NCBI GenBank assembly: GCA_947624655.1
Contig: CANQLH010000016.1
Span: forward strand, 1 to 44,902
Reading direction: 5' to 3'
DNA: 44,902 nucleotides
Source of the DNA: an uncultured Clostridia bacterium
GTDB lineage: Bacteria > Bacillota > Clostridia > TANB77 > CAG-508
Below, piece by piece: positions 15,242 to 39,488 of this stretch. Each line of letters begins with the position of its first letter. The stretch's first letter is position 1. Both the position numbers and the translations under genes were made by a program. The notes beneath the pieces are model-generated. The model was not told the origin of the DNA. It did no database searches and saw only the letters and a list, made by a program, of their open reading frames with translations.

Positions 15242-16774
15242 ATGGAAATTCTTATAAGTATGTTACCCTTCGTCCCCATTGTCGTGGTGGTAGTTGCTCT
15301 AATTATCCTGATTGCATCAGGATATGTAAAGGCCCCGCCTGACCAAGCATACATCATTTCCGGCTGGCACAAGAAGCCTCGTATCCTTGTAGGTAAAGCT
15401 GGTGTCAAGATTCCTTTCTTGGAACGTCTTGATAAGCTATCTCTTGGTGCCATTCAGATTGATGTAAAGACGCGTACCGCGGTTCCTACTGCGGAGTATA
15501 TCAATGTTAAAGTTGATTCTACTGTGTCCGTTAAGGTCAGCCAAGACCCAGAGGGTATTGTATTAGCGTCTCAAAACTTCTTAAACATCCCTCGTGACCA
15601 AATTGCCGCTAAGATTAATGACCTTCTTGAAGGTAACATCCGTGAGATTGTTGGCCAAATGAGACTAACCGAAATGGTTGGCGACCGTAAAGCATTCTCT
15701 GAAAAGGTTCAAGAAAATGCAGTACCCGATTTGAAGCGTTATGGCCTTGAACTCATTACCTTCAATGTTCAGAATTTCTCTGATGACAATGGCGTTATCA
15801 CCAACCTCGGTATTGATAACGTTGAGCAAATTCGTAAGGGCGCAGCCATCGCTAAGTCTAATGCCCAGCGTGAGATTGCAGTCGCAGAAGCAGCTAATGA
15901 TAAAGCAGCTAACGATGCTCGCGTACAGGCAGAAGAAGAGATTGCTAAGCGCAACAACGACCTCGCCATCCGCAAGGCTGCTTTAAAGCAGGAAGCTGAT
16001 ACCAAGCAAGCTCAGGCTAATGCCGCTATGGCGATTGAGGCTGAGAACCAGCGCAAGTTGCGTGACGTAGCCGCGGCCGATGCTGATATTGCTCGTCAGG
16101 AGAAGGAGATTGAACTCAAGGAGAGAGAAGTCTCTGTTAAGGAGCGTTCTCTTGAGGCTGAGGTTAAAAAGACCGCTGAGGCTAAGAAGTATGCCGTTCA
16201 GCAGCAAGCTGATGCAGAACTTTATGCCACTCAGAAGGCTTCTGAAGCCGAGCTGTTCGAGCGCCAGAGAAAGGCCGACGCTGAACTCTTTGAGCGCCAG
16301 AAGAACGGTGAAGCCGCCCAGTACGAGGCAGAGCGTAGAGCTGAAGCCGAGAAAGCTACTGCTGAGGCCGTCCGTGTAAAGGGCGAGGCTGAAGCGGCTG
16401 CTATTCGCGCCCGTGGTACCGCTGAGGCCGACGCTATCGCCGCCAAAGCGGCTGCTGAGGCCGAAGGTCTTATGAAGAAGGCCGAGGCTATGAAGCAGTA
16501 TGGTGAAGCCGCTCAGATGGACATGAAGTTACAGGCCATCAAGATTTACTTTGAGCAGTTGCCCGCAATCGCTGAAGCCGCTGGCAAAGCGTACACCAAC
16601 GTTGACAAGATTGTCATGTTTGGTGGAGAGAGTAGTAAACTCACCGAGGATGTTGTCAAAAACATCACTCAGCTTTCCGAGGGACTCAGTAACTCCCTTG
16701 GTGTTGACCTGAAGGATATTCTCAATTCCTTCATCGGTACAAAGATAGCTTTACCTGATAACCAGAAAGAGTAA
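15242..16774 (+). CDS. Flotillin-like SPFH/band-7 protein (N-terminal TM helix, SPFH domain, long EA-rich coiled coil)
   Basis: TM 'FVPIVVVVVALIILIASG'. The SPFH core 'AYIISGWHKKPRILVGKAGVKIPFLERLDKLSL' matches flotillin/YqiK starts. ~250 aa follow, with tandem repeats 'AELFERQRKADAELFERQKNGEA'. Confidence 0.65.
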   Translation: MEILISMLPFVPIVVVVVALIILIASGYVKAPPDQAYIISGWHKKPRILVGKAGVKIPFLERLDKLSLGAIQIDVKTRTAVPTAEYINVKVDSTVSVKVSQDPEGIVLASQNFLNIPRDQIAAKINDLLEGNIREIVGQMRLTEMVGDRKAFSEKVQENAVPDLKRYGLELITFNVQNFSDDNGVITNLGIDNVEQIRKGAAIAKSNAQREIAVAEAANDKAANDARVQAEEEIAKRNNDLAIRKAALKQEADTKQAQANAAMAIEAENQRKLRDVAAADADIARQEKEIELKEREVSVKERSLEAEVKKTAEAKKYAVQQQADAELYATQKASEAELFERQRKADAELFERQKNGEAAQYEAERRAEAEKATAEAVRVKGEAEAAAIRARGTAEADAIAAKAAAEAEGLMKKAEAMKQYGEAAQMDMKLQAIKIYFEQLPAIAEAAGKAYTNVDKIVMFGGESSKLTEDVVKNITQLSEGLSNSLGVDLKDILNSFIGTKIALPDNQKE

Positions 16775-16786
16775 AGGAGAATATAA

Positions 16787-17788
16787 ATGATTATTTGGCT
16801 GATTGTCCTCGCAATTATTGGGATTATTTCCTTTATTGTTTTGCACGTAATGGCAAAACGTAAAGTAACGGCTGAAAATGCTCGTTATTTAGACAAAAAT
16901 GTAGGTAGCTTTCAGTTTCCTATATGTAGATTGCTACGTTGGCTAATTCCTGGACTTATCGCCTGTATCATGGTTTTATCATTACTAATTGGTGGTATCC
17001 ATATTCTGGATACCACCGAGCGCGGCGTAGTTAAAACCTTTGGACGTATTTCTGATACAGTTCTTGAAGGCGGCTTACGCCTTGTCAATCCTATTTCAGA
17101 TACCGTCACAATTTATGATATGACGGCTAAAACCCATGAACTTGTCTTTGAATCATATACAGGTGATGCACAGGCTATTACAGTAACTGCGGATATCGAA
17201 TATCGACTCGACCCAGGCCGTATCCTTGAGGTTGCTAAAACATATGGCTCAGTTGATGTTCTTGATTCTCAATTTATGAAGGTATGTGAAGAGAGCATTA
17301 AATCTGTAATTTCTACATATAGTGCAATGCCGCTTCTTGAGGACCGAGCTAACATCTCACCAAAAGCACAAACAGCGAGTGCATCTCTTGAGGACGTATA
17401 TCCTGTTATTATTAACAAAGTTGTAATCCGTGATATTGTCTTCTCTGATGCTTTTGAGGCTTCAGTTGAAGCTAAAATGACTGCGGAGCAGGATGCCTTG
17501 CGAGCAGAAGAGGAAGCTCGTAAAGCGATTATTGAAGCCGAGCGTGACCGCGATGTAGCAAAAGTACAGGCCGAAGAGGCCAAGACTAAAGCTCAAGGCG
17601 AAGCAGATGCTAAAGTTATCGCCGCACAAGGTGAGGCTGACGCTCTTGAAATGACACGAGAAGCTCTGGAGAAAATGCCTGACACATGGATTATGCAGCT
17701 CTTTATCGAGCGTTGGGATGGCAAATTGCCAACTTATATGCTTGGTGAAGATACTGGAGTAATGATTTCTCCAGGCGCCGTACAGTAA
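16787..17788 (+). CDS. SPFH/band-7 protein, HflC/HflK/prohibitin-like (two TM regions)
   Basis: 'ERGVVKTFGRISDTVLEGGLRLVNPI' matches the HflKC/stomatin core (eRgVv.rfGr...pGlh...P). C-terminal EA-rich helix. Confidence 0.6.
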   Translation: MIIWLIVLAIIGIISFIVLHVMAKRKVTAENARYLDKNVGSFQFPICRLLRWLIPGLIACIMVLSLLIGGIHILDTTERGVVKTFGRISDTVLEGGLRLVNPISDTVTIYDMTAKTHELVFESYTGDAQAITVTADIEYRLDPGRILEVAKTYGSVDVLDSQFMKVCEESIKSVISTYSAMPLLEDRANISPKAQTASASLEDVYPVIINKVVIRDIVFSDAFEASVEAKMTAEQDALRAEEEARKAIIEAERDRDVAKVQAEEAKTKAQGEADAKVIAAQGEADALEMTREALEKMPDTWIMQLFIERWDGKLPTYMLGEDTGVMISPGAVQ

Positions 17789-17801
17789 AATATTTATTTC
17801 G

Positions 17802-17838
17802 CCCCTAGCTCTTTGAGCTAGGGGTTTTCTTTTTTTCG
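17802..17838 (+). terminator. Rho-independent terminator
   Basis: 9-bp stem cccctagct/agctagggg with loop ctttg, followed by ttttctttttttcg. Confidence 0.85.
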
Positions 17839-17929
17839 CTAGCCTCGATGCGCTTCGTTCTTCCGACCGCTCGCCCTATACAAAATTTTTAAGGTAAATA
17901 GTTAAAATTGGATTTTTCTCTAAAATTAT

Positions 17930-17950
17930 TGTATAATATCGGTAGATTTA
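17930..17950 (+). promoter_or_regulatory. Promoter (ttgTATAATatcggtag), copy 5
   Basis: TATAAT at 17932-17937 preceded by TG. RBS aaggag before ATG 17975. Confidence 0.5.
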
Positions 17951-17974
17951 AAAAACAATAAGGAGTTTAATACT

Positions 17975-18436
17975 ATGATAAAGACCATTTATGAACTTGA
18001 CCCAATATCTTATAATGTAGATGAAGAAACTGGGGAATGTTCTGTAATTCTCAAATATCAAAACAAAGAATATACTGGTATTGCTCATGCGCGGCCAGAA
18101 GATATGATATTATTTTCCGAAAAGGTAGGGCTCAATATCGCGCTAAGAAGAGCGAGAATTGCTATCTTCAAAGATAAATATTTAGAAGCACAGCAAATAG
18201 CTACCATCAAGAATCAAATGTATCAAGAGACAATAGACTTTGGGCATAGAGACACCGCGGAAGTGGACCCTACTGGCGCGTTCTTATCTAAAGTGGTAAA
18301 TGCGCAAAAACGCGCTTTGGCGCTAAAACAAGCTCTGATTATTGAGCGCGAATCTCTAAATACCTATTTGCAAGGATTAAGACAAGTATTTACGACCATT
18401 AAAGCTAAACGTGCGCAGGAGGACAAAAAAGAATAA
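17975..18436 (+). CDS. hypothetical protein (153 aa)
   Basis: ORF with promoter and RBS; no motif recognised. Confidence 0.5.
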   Translation: MIKTIYELDPISYNVDEETGECSVILKYQNKEYTGIAHARPEDMILFSEKVGLNIALRRARIAIFKDKYLEAQQIATIKNQMYQETIDFGHRDTAEVDPTGAFLSKVVNAQKRALALKQALIIERESLNTYLQGLRQVFTTIKAKRAQEDKKE

Positions 18437-18463: not shown

Positions 18464-18718
18464 ATGAGGAAGGTGATTATATTGTCTGATTTTACCAAAG
18501 GATTTATTTGTGCGACGGTTGGCATAACTATTGCCGCTTCTGTAAGTGATATAATTTCTACTGCAACCGAACTACTTAAAGCCTTTTTGGGTAGTAAGAT
18601 AGTGAAATATAATCAAGATATAGATAGCGCTATATCGCCACCGCCGCAAGAAACTCGTGCTATCGGTTTCAATACTACATTTGAACAAGAAGAGGATGAA
18701 GAATATGCTGATGACTAA
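18464..18718 (+). CDS. hypothetical small protein with one hydrophobic helix; start uncertain (possible TTG at 18482)
   Basis: ORF; 'FICATVGITIAASV' is TM-like; acidic C-terminus. Confidence 0.35.
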   Translation: MRKVIILSDFTKGFICATVGITIAASVSDIISTATELLKAFLGSKIVKYNQDIDSAISPPPQETRAIGFNTTFEQEEDEEYADD

Positions 18719-20032: not shown

Positions 20033-21397
20033 ATGACCAATGAAGAATTTATATGGAGATTTCTTGCGGATGCAGGGTATAATAACTTCGGTATTGCTGG
20101 AGTTATGGGCAATCTTTATGCTGAGAGTTGTCTAAATCCGCAAAATCTTCAAAATTCCACAGAAAAGCGTCTCGGCATGAATGATGCCCAATATACTGCT
20201 GCTGTTGATAGTGGTACATATACTAACTTCGTACATGATAGTGGCGGTTACGGCTTGGCTCAATGGACTTATTGGAGTCGGAAAGAGGGTTTACTTAATT
20301 ACGCTAAATCAAAAGGTAAATCTATCGGTGATTTACAAATGTAGCTTGAATACTTCGTCAATGAGCTTGCTCGATATAAAGGTTCTAATGAGAATGTTAA
20401 AAATGCGAAATCTATTCAGCAGGCATCTGACTTTATTGTATTAAATTATGAACGTCCAGCGAGTGTAGGAGCATCCGCATCTGCGGAAACACGTGCTAAT
20501 ACTCTAAATAAACGAGCCGGTTATGGACAGCAGTACTATAATAAATATGCTACTACTGTAGTTGCTCCATCATCTACACCCGCTCCAACGGTTGTTACCA
20601 CAAAAAATCCTATTGATAGAGTAATTGCAATAGCCAAAGCAGAAGAAGGATATTTAGAGAAGAAAACAAATTCTCAATTAGACGATAAAACTGCCAATGC
20701 TGGTTCTAATAACTGGACAAAATATGCTCGTGACCTTGATGCACTTGGTAATTTTTATAATGGTAAAAAGAATGGATACGCTTGGTGTGATGTTTTCGTA
20801 GACTGGTGCTTTGTATAGGCATTTGGTCCAGATAAGGCACGTGAATTACTCTGCCAACCGATCGGGTCAGCCGGCGCAGGATGTACTTACTCTGCACGTT
20901 ACTATAAAGCAAAAGGTCAGTTGTATAAGACTCCGCAACCTGGTGACCAAATTTTCTTTGGAGATTCAAGCGGCAACTGCTCTCATACGGGTTTAGTAGT
21001 CGCGGTTGATAGCTCTAAGGTCTACACTGTTGAAGGAAACACATCGAGCGCCGCAGGCGTAGTAGCTAATGGTGGCTGCGTAAGAGCTAAAAGTTATGCT
21101 CTTAACTATAAAAATATATATGGCTATGGCCGTCCTAACTGGACGCTAGCACCACAAATAGAGGAGGAAGATGATGATATGATTACTCAAGAACAATTCA
21201 ATCAGATGATGGATAACTATCTAAAGGAACTCTCTAAACAACAAGCATATGCCTGGGAGCTTCCAGGATTAAACTGGGCTCAGACCAATGGTATCATGGT
21301 TGGTGACGACACTGGCAATTTGATGCCTCATAAATTCTTAACCCGTGGAGAAGCAGCGGCTGTCGTAATGAGACTGGCTGAAAAGTTAAATAAGTAA
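20033..21397 (+). CDS. Endolysin: lysozyme-like (phage tail lysozyme-type) N-domain + CHAP domain + C-terminal SLH-like cell-wall-binding motif; two in-frame TAGs (20342, 20816)
   Basis: 'GIAGVMGNLYAESCLNP...YGLAQWTYWSRKE' (lysozyme-like family pattern). CHAP 'WCDVFVDWCF...GDQIFFGDSSGNCSHTGLVVAV...VEGNTS' (Cys/His dyad). SLH-like 'WAQTNGIMVGDDTGNLMPHKFLTRGEAAAVVMRL'. Single frame with two TAGs and no TAA/TGA until 21395. Confidence 0.7.
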
Positions 21398-22625: not shown

Positions 22626-24524
22626 ATGAATACACAAGATAAGAATTTATATACCGAAGATAGTATCGAGTCATTAAGCCCATTAGAATTTACTCGTCTG
22701 CGGCCGGGGGTATATTGTGGCGATACATCTCACTCTACGCAGCTTCTTATCGAGATTGTTTCTAATGCAGTAGATGAAGCAAGACTCGGCCATGGTAACT
22801 TAATTGAAGTTTCAGTTAAAGAAGATGGCGCCATTAGAGTGAGAGACTATGGACAAGGCTTCCTCGTTAATTCCATGCGTGAAGATGGTAAAACTGTACT
22901 TGAAGCCGCTTTTAGTGTTCTAAATACCAGTGGTAAATATCGTGAAGATGGTACTTATGAAGGCACTTCTTTGGGTAGTTTTGGAATTGGCTCTAAAATT
23001 ACTACTTATCTCTCTCATTGGCTTGATGTTATTACTATACGTGACGGTATGATGGAACAAGTATCCTTCAAAGAGGGCGTTTTTGATAAAAGATATGTGG
23101 GGAAAAATGATAAACCATCTGGTACGATTGTAGAGTGGCTGCCAAGTGAAGAATTTTTTACAGACATTCATGTTGATTTAACCGCTATCCGCAAGTTATT
23201 TAAAGTAATTGCTTGCTTATGTCCTGGCCTCAAGATTTGTCTGGAAACAGAAGGTAATAGTGAAACTTTTTATTCTGAGCATGGTTTAAATGACCTAGTT
23301 GATGAAGCCGTTAAGGACAAAGAAATCTTAAAAAACCGTCTGATGACTAATTTTTCCGAAGGCAAAAATAAGTTGGATTTAGTTCTAACTTATACAACAG
23401 ATTATAGTACGGTCATTGTTCCGTATGTTAATACTGGCTTGACGCAGACAGGTCCGCATATTACACAAATTAAGACCATTATAACAAGAGAAATGAATAA
23501 ATTCTTCCGCGATAAAGGGTGGCTAAAAGAAAAGGATGAAAATCTTTCAGGAGATGACTGCCAGGAAGGAATGTATCTTGTTTTTAATATAACCGCTCCT
23601 AACGTCGCATATGATGCACAGGTAAAAACTCGTGTCACAAAAATCGACATGACTCCATTCACCAAAGCAATAGCAGAAGAATTGCAATACTGGATGGCAG
23701 CCAATGAGAAAGAAGTTAAAGGGATTGCGGACAAGGCGCTTAACGCGCGCAAAGCTAGAGAAGCCGCCCGGAAGGCTAGGGACGCCGCAAGAGGACTAAA
23801 AGACAAGAAAGAAACTGGTCTTAAAGCCAAGATGAAACTTAGTGATAAGTTTATAGACTGCACAAGTAAAAATCCTAAAGACCGTACTCTTTTGCTTGTA
23901 GAAGGTTTGTCTGCTGGCGCTTCAGCGGTAGAAGCTCGCAATCCTAAAAAAGATTGTATTTATATGTTAAGAGGTAAGATAATTAGCCCTCTGAAAACTG
24001 CGGTAGAAAAAATTCTTGCAAACCAAGAAATGAGTGATATTATTAAGGTAATTGGCGCAGGATTTAGAGATAACTTTGATATGTCTAAAATGAACTTTGA
24101 TAAGATTGTCATAACAACCGATGCAGACTCTGACGGTTATGATATTGAGCTACTACTTATCACGTTTTTCTACACATATATGCGTCCTCTTGTTGAGGCA
24201 GGTAAATTATATAGAGCAGTAACGCCCCTATATATAGTACGCCATAAAGACAAGGAATATTATTGCTATACAGATAATGAATTAGAGGAATGGAAAAAGA
24301 CTCATACTGGAAATTACGACATTTTACGCGCTAAGGGTCTTGGTGAATTGAATCCAGAAGATTTGCAGAAAGTTTGCTTTATGAATGAACATTATAAGCG
24401 TATTACAATTACAGATGCAGAAAAAACTACTCAACTTCTTGAAACATTAATGGGAAGTTCAGTAGAACTTCGTAAGCAGTATATTTATGATAATGCAAAA
24501 GAGCTTGGATTCAACTTTGATTAA
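22626..24524 (+). CDS. Type IIA DNA topoisomerase, ATPase/Toprim subunit (GyrB / T4 gp39-like)
   Basis: GHKL ATPase 'EIVSNAVDEA'. Toprim 'LLLVEGLSAGASAV', 'MLRGKIISPLKT', 'IVITTDADSDGYDIELLLITFF'. Confidence 0.85.
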   Translation: MNTQDKNLYTEDSIESLSPLEFTRLRPGVYCGDTSHSTQLLIEIVSNAVDEARLGHGNLIEVSVKEDGAIRVRDYGQGFLVNSMREDGKTVLEAAFSVLNTSGKYREDGTYEGTSLGSFGIGSKITTYLSHWLDVITIRDGMMEQVSFKEGVFDKRYVGKNDKPSGTIVEWLPSEEFFTDIHVDLTAIRKLFKVIACLCPGLKICLETEGNSETFYSEHGLNDLVDEAVKDKEILKNRLMTNFSEGKNKLDLVLTYTTDYSTVIVPYVNTGLTQTGPHITQIKTIITREMNKFFRDKGWLKEKDENLSGDDCQEGMYLVFNITAPNVAYDAQVKTRVTKIDMTPFTKAIAEELQYWMAANEKEVKGIADKALNARKAREAARKARDAARGLKDKKETGLKAKMKLSDKFIDCTSKNPKDRTLLLVEGLSAGASAVEARNPKKDCIYMLRGKIISPLKTAVEKILANQEMSDIIKVIGAGFRDNFDMSKMNFDKIVITTDADSDGYDIELLLITFFYTYMRPLVEAGKLYRAVTPLYIVRHKDKEYYCYTDNELEEWKKTHTGNYDILRAKGLGELNPEDLQKVCFMNEHYKRITITDAEKTTQLLETLMGSSVELRKQYIYDNAKELGFNFD

Positions 24525-28730: not shown

Positions 28731-28735
28731 AAATA

Positions 28736-29673
28736 TGAATGTAGCATTGATAGTAGTTAGTCTAGTGCTTATCATTGTTAGTATTTGTTTATTATCAATT
28801 AGTTATAAATATCGTAAACTTAATCGGGATAACTTATAGATAATTGAAATAAATGGTAAACGACAAGAATAGAATAAGTAGCTAGATATTGAAAATAAAT
28901 AGTTAGAAACGACCAATCAAGGATTAAAAGACTAGTATAATGAAATAGTTGAACAAATAGAAGGTCTTTCTGCTTCTGCGGAAAGAATGAAATAGAACTC
29001 TGAATAGAGAGCTTAGGAGCAGTTTCAAGCTAAATATGATTAGCTTATGAACTAGTTATCTAAAGACCATGAAGCGGCGGTCGCCGCATATCAATTAGAA
29101 CTTTCTGCTCTTGCTAAGAAGAAAGAGTTTGAGCAATCTAAATTACAAGATATTGAAAATAAATAGCTTGCTTATTTAGAGGCGCAAAAACGGCAAGAAG
29201 AAATGAAAAATAATCAAGACTTTTATCGTCTTGTAATTAATGATATAGATTTAGAAGACGTTAAGATGCTACGAGAATTATAGGTTCGTTTCTCTCATAA
29301 AGATAGTATTGATAAACTTATCTGGGAGAATTACTACAAACCAGCTTATGACGCTTTAATGGCGAGATTATTCGGGCAGAAAACAAAAGTATGCGGTATC
29401 TATAAGATTACTGATACTACAACGGAGCTATCTTACATTGGGCAGTCTGTTGATATTAAAGAGCGTTTCCGCCAGCATATTAAAACGTCATTAACTTATG
29501 GTGTAGCAACCAATAAACTATATCAAGCATTACAACGTTCTGGACAATCCAACTTTACATTTGAGATATTAGAAGAAGTCGATAGAAGCAAACTGAATGA
29601 ACGAGAAATATATTGGATAGATTTTTATAAAACGAAGGAGTTCGGCCTCAATAAGACTATAGGAGGATCCTAA
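28736..29673 (+). CDS. Membrane-anchored coiled-coil protein with a C-terminal GIY-YIG nuclease domain; 13 in-frame TAG codons
   Basis: One frame from ATG 28736 to TAA 29671-29673 contains 13 TAG and no TAA/TGA. N-terminal TM 'VALIVVSLVLIIVSICLLSI'. ~200 aa heptad-like region. C-terminal 'GIYKITDTTTELSYIGQSVDIKERFRQH...EREIYWIDFY...LNKTIGG' (GIY-YIG). No RBS before the internal ATG at 29359. Confidence 0.6.
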
Positions 29674-36682: not shown

Positions 36683-37311
36683 ATGCAATATACGTTAATA
36701 AATCCAATTAATGAAGAATATTCACCTATTGAGCAAGTATTGACAAATAGAGGGATGTAGATATAGGAAATAGCTCATTATCTCCATCTTACTGAAGATG
36801 ATGTTCTATCTCCTGAGCTGTTGATGAATGTTAAAGAAGCAGCTAAACTAATAGTAAAACACTTATCAGATGATAAGGGCAAGATATTTATATAGGTAGA
36901 TTCTGATTGTGACGGATATACTTCGTCAGCTTTACTACTAAATTATCTGCATGATATATGGCCCACTTGTATTAATAAAATTAGTTATAATTTTCATAAT
37001 GGCAAAATACATGGTATTAACTTAGATTTAGTACCATCAGATACTACTTTAGTAATAGCACCAGATTCAGCAAGTAATGACTATGAGCAGCATCAAATCT
37101 TATCAGAGCGAGGTGTTGATGTTTTGGTAATAGACCACCACTTGGCTGATAAGATTTCTCCATATGCTTGCATTGTGAACAATCAACTTTGTGATTATCC
37201 TAATAAAACTTTATCTGGTGTTGGTGTTGTCTATAAGGTATGTTAGGAGATTGATAGTCTCTTAGAAGAAGACCACGCTCATAACTTTATTGACCTTGTT
37301 ATGTTAGGCTT
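36683..37311 (+). CDS. RecJ-like DHH-family ssDNA exonuclease, exon 1 (three in-frame TAGs)
   Basis: 'ILTNRGM(TAG)I(TAG)E...', 'IFI(TAG)VDSDCDGYTSSALL' (DHH motif I/II), 'VLVIDHHLADK' (DHH motif III), 'LSGVGVVYKVC(TAG)EIDSLL', 'IDLVMLGL'. The frame then hits multiple TGA/TAA stops. Confidence 0.75.
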
Positions 37312-38374
37312 AGATTGAACTGAGCGAATATCTCTTTTCCGATTTTTGTTAATCGGGGTCATTTTTAATTAAATGGCTAACGAGGAAACCTAAATACTAA
37401 TGAAGACATGATGATATGTTGGAAATAGTACAAGGTAATCTCGTGGGAATCATACAACATATCATTATAAAACTATAAAGGAGTGTTTATAATGATTATA
37501 AAACTAGAAGATTTGAAACCAAGAACCCAGGGTATCTATAAAATTAATTACCCTAATGGAAAGATTTATATCGGCCTTAGTGTTGATATAAAGAGACGTA
37601 TGCAGGAGCATAATAACATTAATAAGGCAAAAAGCCCCTGCGACTTAGCCATTAAGAAGTATGGTAAGGTAACTGAAGTAGAAATATTAGAGTTGATTTA
37701 TGATATTGAATTACTAACTGAGCGTGAAGAATATTGGATAAACTATTACCAATCTTGGGACCCATCTATAGGCTATAATCTAACTATTGGCGGAGATGGA
37801 TCAGGATTAGCCAATGAAGATAGTCCTGTTGCAATTTTCACAAATGATTAGGTATTAGACATCAGAAAGCGTAGATTCCTTGGAGAGCGCAAGAAAGACG
37901 TCTATAAAGATTACAAGAATATTAGTTTTTCCACCTTTGAGCACGTTTGGTTAGGACGTGGCTATCCAGAGATAGGCGCGGAATATATCATACCGGCAAA
38001 TTCTATCAGTAGATAGGAGTATTCTTCTAAAGCAAATGCTGGATTAAAGAACGGCAGAGCAAAGTGCTCTCGTGATGATATTCTTGAGATAAGAAGGCTT
38101 TATGAAGAAGAGCATATGACTTTTACCGATATAGCTAAGCGATTTCCTAATATTTCTAGAAGTACAGTACGTCGTATCGCATTAAGAGAATCTTATGGTA
38201 GTGTTGTATGAAGCCTGTATCGACTATCCCTAAGGTTGAAATGCTGGGGAGTAGGGCTACTATTAACACGTAGCGATGTTTTAGGAAACGACGCATCTGA
38301 AAACCGAAAGAGAGATACCTATATTTTTATAGGTAAAAAATAGTCAACGCCTTATGGAAACATAAGGAATTGTG
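37312..38374 (+). mobile_element. Putative group I intron (1063 nt) carrying a GIY-YIG homing endonuclease ORF, inserted in the RecJ-like gene
   Basis: Non-coding flanks with stops in all frames. The proposed 5' splice site follows U (ggctt|agattgaact) and the 3' splice site follows G (aattgtg|agtcgg). Joining restores the RecJ motif DLVMLGL-VGDMMDI (RecJ: DLVALGTVADVVPL). Confidence 0.55.
37483..38211 (+). CDS. GIY-YIG homing endonuclease (I-TevI-like: N-terminal GIY-YIG, C-terminal HTH DNA-binding region) with two in-frame TAGs
   Basis: 'GIYKINYPNGKIYIGLSVDIKRRMQEH...EREEYWINYY...GYNLTIGG'. C-terminal 'ILEIRRLYEEEHMTFTDIAKRFPNISRSTVRRIAL' HTH. TAGs at 37849 and 38014 in one frame to TGA 38209-38211. 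Confidence 0.7.
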
Positions 38375-39488
38375 AGTCGGAGATATGATGGATATACGAA
38401 ACACGGAAACACGCTATCTTATTCAAGATGGTATGAAGAATGTTAGAAATCCATTTATTAAAGGTATGGTAGAGAAGAATAGCTATTCTCTTAAAGGAGA
38501 AGTAACTCCTATTGGAGTAGCATTTTATATTGTACCTTTTGTCAATGCAATAACAAGAGTCGGAACTTAGGAAGAAAAAGAATTGTTATTTAAGAGTATG
38601 CTGCCTTGGGAAGCAAATACTTTAATTCCTTCTACCAAGCGCGGTTGTAAAGGACAAATGGAGACATTACTCGAACAAGCACTCCGTACTTGTACTAATG
38701 TTAAAAACCGACAAACTAAAACAAGAGATGCAGGAGTTGAAGCTATCTATGAGATTATAGAAAGAGATAGACTTCTTGAAAATAAACTGCTAATAATTAG
38801 ACTTGCGGCCGGCGCTTTAGACCCAGGTGTCACGGGCTTAATAGCCAATGAGTTAATGAGTGAATTTCAACGTCCTGTGGCTATACTTCAAGAGAGAGAA
38901 TACGAAGGAAAGAAGGCATGGATGGGGTCTGCAAGAGGTTATGAGAAGAGTCAGTTAAATAACTTCCGCCAATTCTGCATTGACTCAGGATTTGTATTCC
39001 AGGCCGCTGGACACGCAAACGCTTTTGGCCTTGGAATTTATGACGAAAATATTGACGACTTCATTAGATGGTCTAATGATGAATTGGAAGATATAGATTT
39101 CTCACCATCTTATAAAGTAGACTTTATATATCAGGCGAATACCGCCCGCCCGCAAACTATATTAGATTTAGGCGACCATCACGAATTATGGGGACAAAAT
39201 ATTGATGAACCTCTAATCGCTATTGAGCATATCTTAGTAACCAAAGATATGCTAACCTTGATGTCGCGTGATAAGAACCCAACAATCAAAATTACTCTTC
39301 CTAATGGTATATCTTGTATTAAGTTTAAGGCAAGTGAAGACGAGTATAATAAATTATATAGTGAGACTGGTTGCGTAACTATTAATATAGTTGGCAGACC
39401 AGAAGTAAATAGATATTATGGTTCGGTAACTCCTCAGCTTCTAATAACAGATTATGAGATTGTAAATAAGCAGGCTTATTACTTCTGA
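38375..39488 (+). CDS. RecJ-like exonuclease, exon 2 (one in-frame TAG at 38568-38570)
   Basis: 'IRNTETRYLIQDGMKNV...IGVAFYIVPFVNAITRVGT(TAG)EEKELL' matches RecJ 'ENR.lv..GL...igf.iaPRlNAaGRlg'. Continues through the DHHA1-like region to TGA. Confidence 0.7.

Follow-up and report, generated by a model that had tools for sequence, protein, structure and literature searches.

What interrupts the RecJ-like exonuclease gene at positions 36683–39488 of contig CANQLH010000016.1, and do the two sides of the interruption still form one gene? The contig (44,902 nucleotides (nt), in its entirety referred to here as the window) belongs to assembly GCA_947624655.1 of an uncultured Clostridia bacterium and represents part of a phage genome; contigs of relatives with homologous RecJ genes reach about 145 kb. 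A sequence-only reading had described the frame as broken after DLVMLGL and resuming 1063 nt later, and had interpreted the intervening DNA as a group I intron carrying a GIY-YIG homing endonuclease. Ever since the td intron of phage T4, mobile group I introns that carry GIY-YIG endonucleases have belonged to the textbook knowledge of phages, and nothing reported here overturns current understanding. We assign a probability of roughly 0.88 to the reading that 37312–38374 is a mobile td-type group I intron (IA2-like, with P7.1 and P7.2) in a phage RecJ/YorK-like exonuclease gene. The kind of element is well known; new here are the RecJ-like host gene, not previously noted, and its setting in a TAG-recoded phage.

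The gene consists of two segments separated by the 1063-nt insert (^ marks the insertion point throughout; the covariance model R1 is described below):

36683–37311, + strand: exon 1, RecJ-like (translation; Pfam DHH; intronless allele P0001/L002)
37312–38374, + strand: predicted T4 td-type group I intron of 1063 nt that splits a Leu codon, TT^A, in phase 2 (boundaries from the intronless allele; structure and covariation; R1 match)
38375–39488, + strand: exon 2, RecJ-like, with DHHA1 and RecJ_OB domains (translation; Pfam; intronless allele)

Exon 1 encodes the N-terminal DHH domain with motifs I–III (DSDCDG, APDSASND, VIDHH), contains four in-frame TAG codons and ends in U37311, its translation closing with ...DLVMLGL. 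Exon 2 resumes with VGDMMDIRN... and runs to the stop codon with a single in-frame TAG. With TAG translated as Gln, the joined product is a polypeptide of 580 amino acids (aa) that exceeds the cut-offs of Pfam DHH (53.8 bits) and RecJ_OB (30.9 bits) and falls just short of that of DHHA1 (22.8 bits; cut-off 25.9 bits). A full-length match to PHROG 2484 (E 7e-156) was obtained using the 99%-identical intronless allele as query. This allele encodes P0001, a 580-aa protein from a different metagenome (Logan SRR27728193) that shares 99% identity along its full length and runs through the junction unbroken (DLVMLGLVGDMMDIRN). Its DNA (L002) reads ...gttatgttgggctt^agtcggagat, likewise ...gttgggctt^agtcggagat, which fixes the insertion point at GGCTT^AGTCGG, in phase 2 of the Leu codon. 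The end of exon 1 (...GUUAGGCUU) and the start of exon 2 (AGUCGGAGAU) make up the predicted ligated junction, and the insert ends in G38374, directly 5′ of the junction set by the intronless allele. Comparison with an intronless RecJ allele, which had been proposed as a check, confirmed both the coordinates and the junction to the base.

The alleles with and without the insert are 98.7% identical, differing at 23 of 1743 positions (L002 4001–5743 against the window exons). Their density peaks within about 200 nt of the insertion, 12 of the 23 falling at gene positions 600–1000 with the insertion at 629, and two silent differences lie at −17 and −5 from the insertion site. Such a cluster could stem from co-conversion or from divergence of the target site. 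The nearest deposited RecJ homologs are of the SPbeta YorK type (≤37% identity), and appeared as single uninterrupted matches among the matches listed; a protein database search found RecJ homologs to be mostly uninterrupted, as expected for a mobile intron. The predicted spliced product resembles the RecJ-like single-stranded DNA exonucleases of SPbeta (YorK, about 35–37% identical) and other Firmicutes phages in PHROG 2484, but these homologs, among the matches listed, lack the interruption. A literature search for an intron in RecJ returned nothing relevant, in a library whose limited extent makes this no proof of novelty.

The insert is non-coding at both ends, as had been described, over 180 nt at the 5′ side and 163 nt at the 3′ side. 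The following elements of a group I intron were assigned from minimum free energy (MFE) folding, in which each intron half was folded unconstrained, and from comparison with related introns:

37308–37313 (GCUU^AG) with 37320–37325 (internal guide sequence (IGS) CUGAGC), + strand: P1 (MFE fold; compensatory changes in four RecJ introns)
37319–37321 (ACU) with 38375–38377 (exon 2 AGU), + strand: P10 (covaries in four phages)
37330–37335 (AUCUCU) with 38311–38316 (AGAGAU), + strand: P3 (family covariation)
37339–37356 (CCGAUU/AAUCGG), + strand: hairpin hpA (MFE fold; covaries in family)
37358–37377 (GUCAUUU/AAAUGGC), + strand: hairpin hpB (MFE fold; covaries in family)
37378–37379 (UA), + strand: J3/4
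37380–37384 (ACGAG) with 37440–37444 (CUCGU), + strand: P4, enclosing P5 and P5a (MFE fold)
37389–37391 with 37433–37435, + strand: P5 (MFE fold, covariation)
37395–37399 with 37426–37430, + strand: P5a (MFE fold)
37445–37447 (GGG) with 38214–38216 (CCU), + strand: P6 (becomes GCG/CGU in L004)
37451–37459 with 38202–38210, + strand: P6a, whose loop encloses the open reading frame (ORF) and whose 3′ strand overlaps the ORF stop codon
38214–38374, + strand: ribozyme 3′ half (R1, MFE fold, covariation, similarity to Enterococcus phage EF1)
38217–38221, + strand: J6/7
38222–38227 (GACUAU) with 38340–38345 (AUAGUC), + strand: P7 (identical to T4 td)
38228–38249, + strand: P7.1 (covaries)
38254–38305, + strand: P7.2, including branch hairpin X at 38275–38297 (covaries)
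38317–38334, + strand: P8 (MFE fold)
38350–38367, + strand: P9, with a GAAA loop (covaries)
38374, + strand: terminal G (intronless allele)

The fold of the 5′ half recovered P1, hpA, hpB, P4, P5 and P5a (z −4.4), and that of the 3′ half P7.1, P7.2, X, P8 and P9 (z −3.2). The splice sites were compared across three further phages from IMG/VR (L057, L077 and L102) that carry the same intron in the same RecJ codon (ALGL^IADMMD, ALGM^VADMMD and AIGL^VADMMS). In all four RecJ introns, including that of the window, the exon ends in U and the intron in G, in line with the earlier description of the ends; in the window, U37311·G37322 forms the splice-site wobble pair in a P1 of 6 base pairs (bp). The IGS tracks the exon codon across the four introns (GCUU/GAGC, GGCCU/GGGCU, GGCAU/GUGCU and GGCCU/GGGCU), and P10, of 3–5 bp, varies likewise (AGU/ACU, AAUU/AAUU, GGUGG/UUAUC and AGU/ACU). 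This covariation of P1 and P10 with the exon codons provides direct comparative support for both splice sites.

An intron family was gathered by sequence-pattern scans of IMG/VR, yielding at least 120 loci with the same core strings; the search patterns fix P4′, P6 and P7. Covariation was analysed in an alignment of 41 family members in which linkers stood in for only two stretches, the P6a/ORF segment and the inner part of hpB, with cuts placed by sequence anchors and not by complementarity. The proposed structure (P3, P4, P5, P6, P7, P7.1, P7.2, P9, hpA and hpB) pairs in 95.7% of cells, compared with 80.0% for shuffled columns and 35–43% when partners were slid by 1–3 columns. Changes on both sides were seen in 34 of 56 pairs, and the covariation score was 0.409 versus 0.142, with none of 500 shuffles as high. 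Compensatory changes occur in P3, hpA, hpB, P5, P7.1, P7.2, X and P9; in P3 both sides change in three of the five pairs and, although the alignment slips in register, 86.8% of cells pair. A cruder test of P3, whose windows clipped the real strand, was uninformative (mean longest helix 6.5, against 6.1 for mismatched pairs).

The covariance model R1 was built from the intron 3′ half of 32 family members, with the window and the other RecJ introns left out. Searched against both strands of the 44.9-kb window, R1 matches once, at 38214–38378 (+ strand; 64.7 bits, E about 1e-14). It also matches the 3′ half of the experimentally proven T4 td intron, which was run as a control (40.4 bits, E 1.6e-8), and both polymerase introns of Enterococcus phage EF1 (86.9 bits). 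Pairwise alignment of the intron halves to T4 td gave nothing useful beyond short core strings. These strings are CGACUAUCCCU, GGGGAGUAGGG, CGAAA before P3′ and AUAGUC, together with the motif CUAACGRGGAA...AAUCYCGUGGGAA; with the R1 match to td, they place the element among the td-like, IA2-type phage introns. As in T4 td (group IA2), the group I core has P7.1 and P7.2, here between P7 and P3′, and a GIY-YIG ORF sits in the P6a loop. The host gene is thymidylate synthase there and a RecJ-like exonuclease here. In T4 td, P2 lies between P1 and P3, and the P3 strand UCUAUC adjoins UAAACGGGG (UAAA-CGGGG) at J3/4, whereas here P3 follows directly after P1, and two conserved hairpins precede J3/4; P7.2 also carries the extra branch hairpin X. 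The strand order here and across the family is P1, P3, hpA, hpB, J3/4, P4, in contrast to the IA2 order P1-P2-P3-J3/4-P4. The earlier interpretation as a group I intron is thus upheld by a core that covaries across relatives and is homologous to that of td, and the intron is predicted to work like an IA2 intron with a differing periphery.

Several observations weigh against this interpretation. P1 of the window copy has only four exon–IGS pairs. The usual position of P2 is empty, and the arrangement of two hairpins between P3 and J3/4 could be matched to no described subgroup in a non-exhaustive literature search. P4′, P6 and P7 are invariant and carry no covariation information either way, partly because the search patterns fixed them. 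The Rfam model of group I introns, RF00028 (Intron_gpI), gave no match on the window, either at its gathering threshold (50 bits) or with E up to 10, so that the Rfam check proposed for the insert was negative. Exon 2, finally, contains a possible internal start (GGAG, then ATG 38388) that would allow expression in two pieces.

The Rfam result carries little weight because the proven T4 td intron, at 40.3 bits, also falls below the gathering score; for the same reason the 50-bit criterion is too strict for ORF-bearing phage introns. Rfam scans of the window returned chance snoRNA-like matches only, and the EF1 locus also gave nothing; two ORF-less relatives in L006 reach 24 bits with Intron_gpI (E 6.5e-4 and 8e-4).

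The internal start bears on the possibility that RecJ is a split gene expressed without splicing. An endonuclease cassette would have cut RecJ, and the halves, an N-terminal one at 36683–37318 (ending in TGA) and a C-terminal one from ATG 38385 or 38388, would be translated separately and then assemble, as for some split genes of T4-like phages. The frame of exon 1 does close with a stop codon 7 nt inside the insert, GGAG precedes ATG ATG in exon 2, and there is a public gene call for a 366-aa C-terminal piece (P0101), which comes from the intron-bearing allele and is recorded on five contigs. The GGAG-ATG-ATG string is, however, the coding sequence of a conserved G-D-M-M that is also present in intronless alleles, and the break falls within the DHH domain. 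On either side of the cassette lies part of a conserved ribozyme core that covaries and is homologous to that of T4 td, and P1 and P10 track the exon codons. We consider a split gene highly improbable.

The short P1 and the Rfam result, on the other hand, raise the question of decay: a decayed group I intron might not splice, or might splice only with a helper protein, leaving RecJ inactive or poorly expressed. Two further departures from the family point the same way, AAAAA in J8/7 where the family has AAGAU or AAGAG, and a P7.2 loop reading UAUUAACAC against the consensus UAUUGAUAC; decay also occurs in the lineage, as the endonuclease of L102 is N-terminally truncated. Against this, none of the core helices is disrupted, neither exon shows any other defect, the endonuclease has a complete ORF with its GIY, YIG, R, E and N positions kept, P0101 is encoded by the intron-bearing allele and found on five contigs, and the intron scores 64.7 bits with the family model. 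A decayed intron is therefore judged improbable, and a mobile td-type intron remains the preferred reading.

The only ORF of the insert lies in the loop of P6a:

37492–38211, + strand: GIY-YIG homing endonuclease with a C-terminal helix-turn-helix (HTH), 239 aa (Pfam, I-TevI alignment, PHROG)

The protein matches Pfam GIY-YIG (PF01541, 38.8 bits; cut-off 22.6 bits) and, at residues 191–229, HTH_7 (28.2 bits; cut-off 23.8 bits), and also PHROG homing endonuclease families. Its N-terminal 85 residues align with the catalytic domain of I-TevI (1LN0/1MK0, E 2.6e-6), with the GIY, YIG, Arg, Glu (ERE) and Asn (GYN) positions kept. As in I-TevI, a long linker connects the HTH domain with the catalytic one. 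In I-TevI a zinc finger sets the cleavage distance, whereas the linker here is without one; the 239 aa include only two Cys residues, so a Cys4 zinc finger is not possible. An I-TevI-like GIY-YIG ORF with its own ribosome-binding site had been reported previously and was found as described, except for its start at 37483: the GTG at that position falls within the ribosome-binding site AAAGGAG (37477–37483), and the likely start is ATG 37492, 8 nt past it. The endonucleases of L057, L077 and L102 are 57–58% identical to that of the window. In L102, a standard-code phage, the endonuclease ORF (about 224–1290) lacks the N-terminal GIY motif and is preceded by a short ATG...TAA frame, which fits a decay stage of the homing-endonuclease life cycle.

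The content of the insert also bears on elements other than a group I intron, namely a group II intron, an intein or an IStron-like composite. Only the bare fact that a gene is interrupted speaks for any of them. There is no reverse transcriptase and no match to the Rfam group II models with E up to 10; an intein is excluded, as the insert has many stop codons and does not keep the frame; and a transposase, as in an IStron, is absent, the sole ORF being the GIY-YIG endonuclease. We regard such elements as barely conceivable at this locus.

In group I splicing, an external guanosine attacks first and the freed exon 1 then attacks in turn. For the td-type intron in RecJ, the transcribed RNA would fold into the group I core, and the external guanosine would attack after U37311, held by the U·G pair of P1. 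The freed exon 1 would then attack behind the terminal G38374 while P10 keeps exon 2 in register, and joining of GGCUU-AGUCGG would yield the continuous 580-aa RecJ-like protein. The endonuclease is predicted to cleave intronless alleles in co-infecting relatives, and repair would copy the intron in, so that it would spread by homing. If the enzyme is I-TevI-like, its cut is predicted to fall at a set distance upstream of the exon 2 binding site; a candidate CNNNG cleavage motif, CTTAG, straddles the insertion point. In contrast to T4 td, splicing and cleavage are here predicted from sequence alone, and the ORF contains TAG sense codons.

Production of the endonuclease may be held back at three levels, for two of which there are candidate elements in the RNA or DNA upstream of the ORF:

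37461–37474 with 37482–37496, + strand: start-codon hairpin, 14 bp, burying AUG 37492–37494 and part of the ribosome-binding site
37405–37426, + strand: exon 2 look-alike in L5, candidate I-TevI-type operator (matches in four RecJ introns)

At the first level, the hairpin would bury the start codon of the endonuclease. Equivalent start-codon hairpins of different sequence are present in L057 and L077, and T4 restricts translation of I-TevI by such a hairpin (PMC2988022).

At the second, a copy of the exon 2 target upstream of the ORF would act as an operator for autorepression. The segment GAUAUGUUGGAAAU (37413–37426) matches exon 2 GAUAUGAUGGAUAU (38382–38395) at 12 of 14 positions and is preceded by a partial first copy at 37405–37414. 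Exact matches to exon 2 are found at the same place in L5 of L057 (16 nt), L077 (12 nt) and L102 (11 nt); among 4000 mismatched control pairings, matches of at least 11 nt occurred 15 times and of at least 12 nt once. The copy follows the synonymous codon, GAT or GAC, that each phage itself uses. It was not found in the introns of other host genes, nor was it seen in the intron lineages of EF1 and Lactococcus phages. I-TevI has its operator within the td intron, ahead of the ORF; this operator resembles the homing site, and I-TevI binds it without cutting and so represses its own transcription (PMC2988022). T4 td/I-TevI offers a parallel both for the hairpin at the endonuclease start and for the homing-site-like sequence upstream of the ORF. 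A scan for sigma-70-type promoters around the intron found 12, with 11.6 expected, and provided no promoter support at the exon 2 copy. We propose only tentatively, and with the odds somewhat against it, that the L5 copy serves as an operator of the I-TevI type. Its tracking of each phage's own exon 2 offers a direct lead on whether this form of autorepression is general among GIY-YIG intron endonucleases.

The L5 copy may also act at the level of RNA, and a role as an RNA switch is possible. Its reverse complement occurs at 37455–37468, just upstream of the ribosome-binding site of the endonuclease, and 37408–37421 in L5 can pair with this segment over 14 bp (−17.6 kcal/mol). This pairing would rival both P6a (−14.5 kcal/mol) and the start-codon hairpin, whose 5′ strand overlaps 37455–37468. 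An intron segment complementary to exon 2 lies near the 5′ strand of P6a in three of the four RecJ introns, with varying position and strength. As the segment is inconsistently placed in relatives, a riboswitch-like mechanism is not claimed.

The third level would be the genetic code, as the two in-frame TAG codons of the endonuclease would need the TAG-to-Gln decoding of the phage. Both align with Gln in the standard-code homologs of L077, L102 and EF1, and the public protein call P0001 reads Q at the TAG codons of RecJ. TAG sense codons in the exons (four and one) and in the endonuclease (two) had been noted before and were found as stated. Reading TAG as sense raises the plus-strand ORF content of the window from 10,423 to 13,473 aa, and the phage evidently reads TAG as Gln. 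No tRNA gene, and hence no CUA suppressor, was found within the 44.9-kb window, which covers only part of the phage genome. TAG density is the same in the endonuclease (2 of 239 codons, 0.84%) as in RecJ (5 of 580, 0.86%), with no sign of preferential recoding of the endonuclease. In the 'Agate' gut phages, a recoded group I intron endonuclease has been described and a delay of its production proposed (Borges et al., bioRxiv 10.1101/2021.08.26.457843); there TGA encodes Trp and the endonuclease is preferentially recoded, unlike the present case with TAG as Gln. As to the view that the intron is resident in the recoded lineage and not a recent import, the TAG codons show adaptation to, or origin in, TAG-recoded phages, but import from another recoded phage is possible.

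The wider intron family extends beyond RecJ. Positions 38211–38312 are 82% identical (102 nt, BLAST) to a segment of Enterococcus phage EF1 that follows a GIY-YIG-like ORF and lies between two pieces of a DNA polymerase gene. The EF1 introns carry a homologous GIY-YIG and HTH protein in the same loop and show the same hpA/hpB arrangement; the Lactococcus phages LW81, AM1 and P1048 also match. These phages differ in their host genes (DNA polymerase and others) and in using the standard code. Among the matches listed, about 13 family loci are without an ORF and about 70 have one, most of the ORFs encoding GIY-YIG proteins homologous to that of the window. The place of the ORF is constant in the ORF-bearing relatives examined, between ...CYCGUGGGAA and CCUGUAUCGACUAU.... 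The two ORF-less introns of L006 (about 5762–6105 and 6331–6570) both lie in one GyrB-like gene (DADVDG and KGLGEM motifs); GyrB of the window (22626–24524) is uninterrupted. A stretch of 44 nt covering P7.2 and X (38248–38291) is 86–89% identical to unannotated sequence in Prevotella Lak megaphages (MK250015–MK250028; 540–550 kb), which suggests that related introns occur in Lak phages.

The family may amount to a large branch of the td-like group I introns of gut and Firmicutes phages, one that differs in structure from the rest and has so far escaped recognition, with a RecJ lineage in which I-TevI-style dual control is joined by a TAG layer. This proposal, which may draw on the at least 120 IMG/VR loci, the replacement of P2 by two hairpins and Rfam scores far below threshold, is a speculative one that we think rather unlikely to hold in full. 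With the RecJ/YorK-like exonuclease, a further gene would join the phage replication and repair genes targeted by homing introns. The same intron lineage appears to move between standard-code and TAG-recoded phages, its endonuclease ORF gaining TAG Gln codons. At the level of annotation, gene callers split RecJ into fragments, as reflected by the 366-aa piece in the public record; since the Rfam model misses the family, similar introns are probably under-annotated in phage metagenomes and counts of truncated genes inflated.

Outside RecJ, the window encodes vault-like, RNA ligase, NAMPT, flotillin-like, GyrB, GyrA, DNA ligase, PhoH/PIN, DnaB, primase-like, RecD-like helicase and endolysin products. 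Plus-strand ORFs at 1–18436 (vault-like, RNA ligase, radical SAM, NAMPT, flotillin-like) contain no in-frame TAG, and most genes at 18696–42335 carry one to five TAG codons. This resembles the layout proposed for recoded phages, with a possibly early block compatible with the standard code ahead of a recoded one. No other ORF of the window comes near the TAG density of 28735–29673 (+ strand), with 12 in-frame TAG in 312 codons; its product starts with a hydrophobic segment, continues with a long Q/E/K-rich middle part and ends in a GIY-YIG domain (Pfam 34 bits), and may be a free-standing GIY-YIG nuclease whose production would depend heavily on TAG suppression. The ORF at 582–3011 (+ strand) encodes 809 aa with the Major Vault Protein shoulder and repeat domains (Pfam E 1e-16 and 1e-9), which is unusual for a phage. 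The endolysin-like product of 20033–21397 (+ strand) combines phage lysozyme, CHAP and S-layer homology (SLH) domains; the SLH domain suggests an S-layer-bearing host, probably a Firmicute, in keeping with RecJ being YorK-like and with the occurrence of related introns in Lactococcus and Enterococcus phages.

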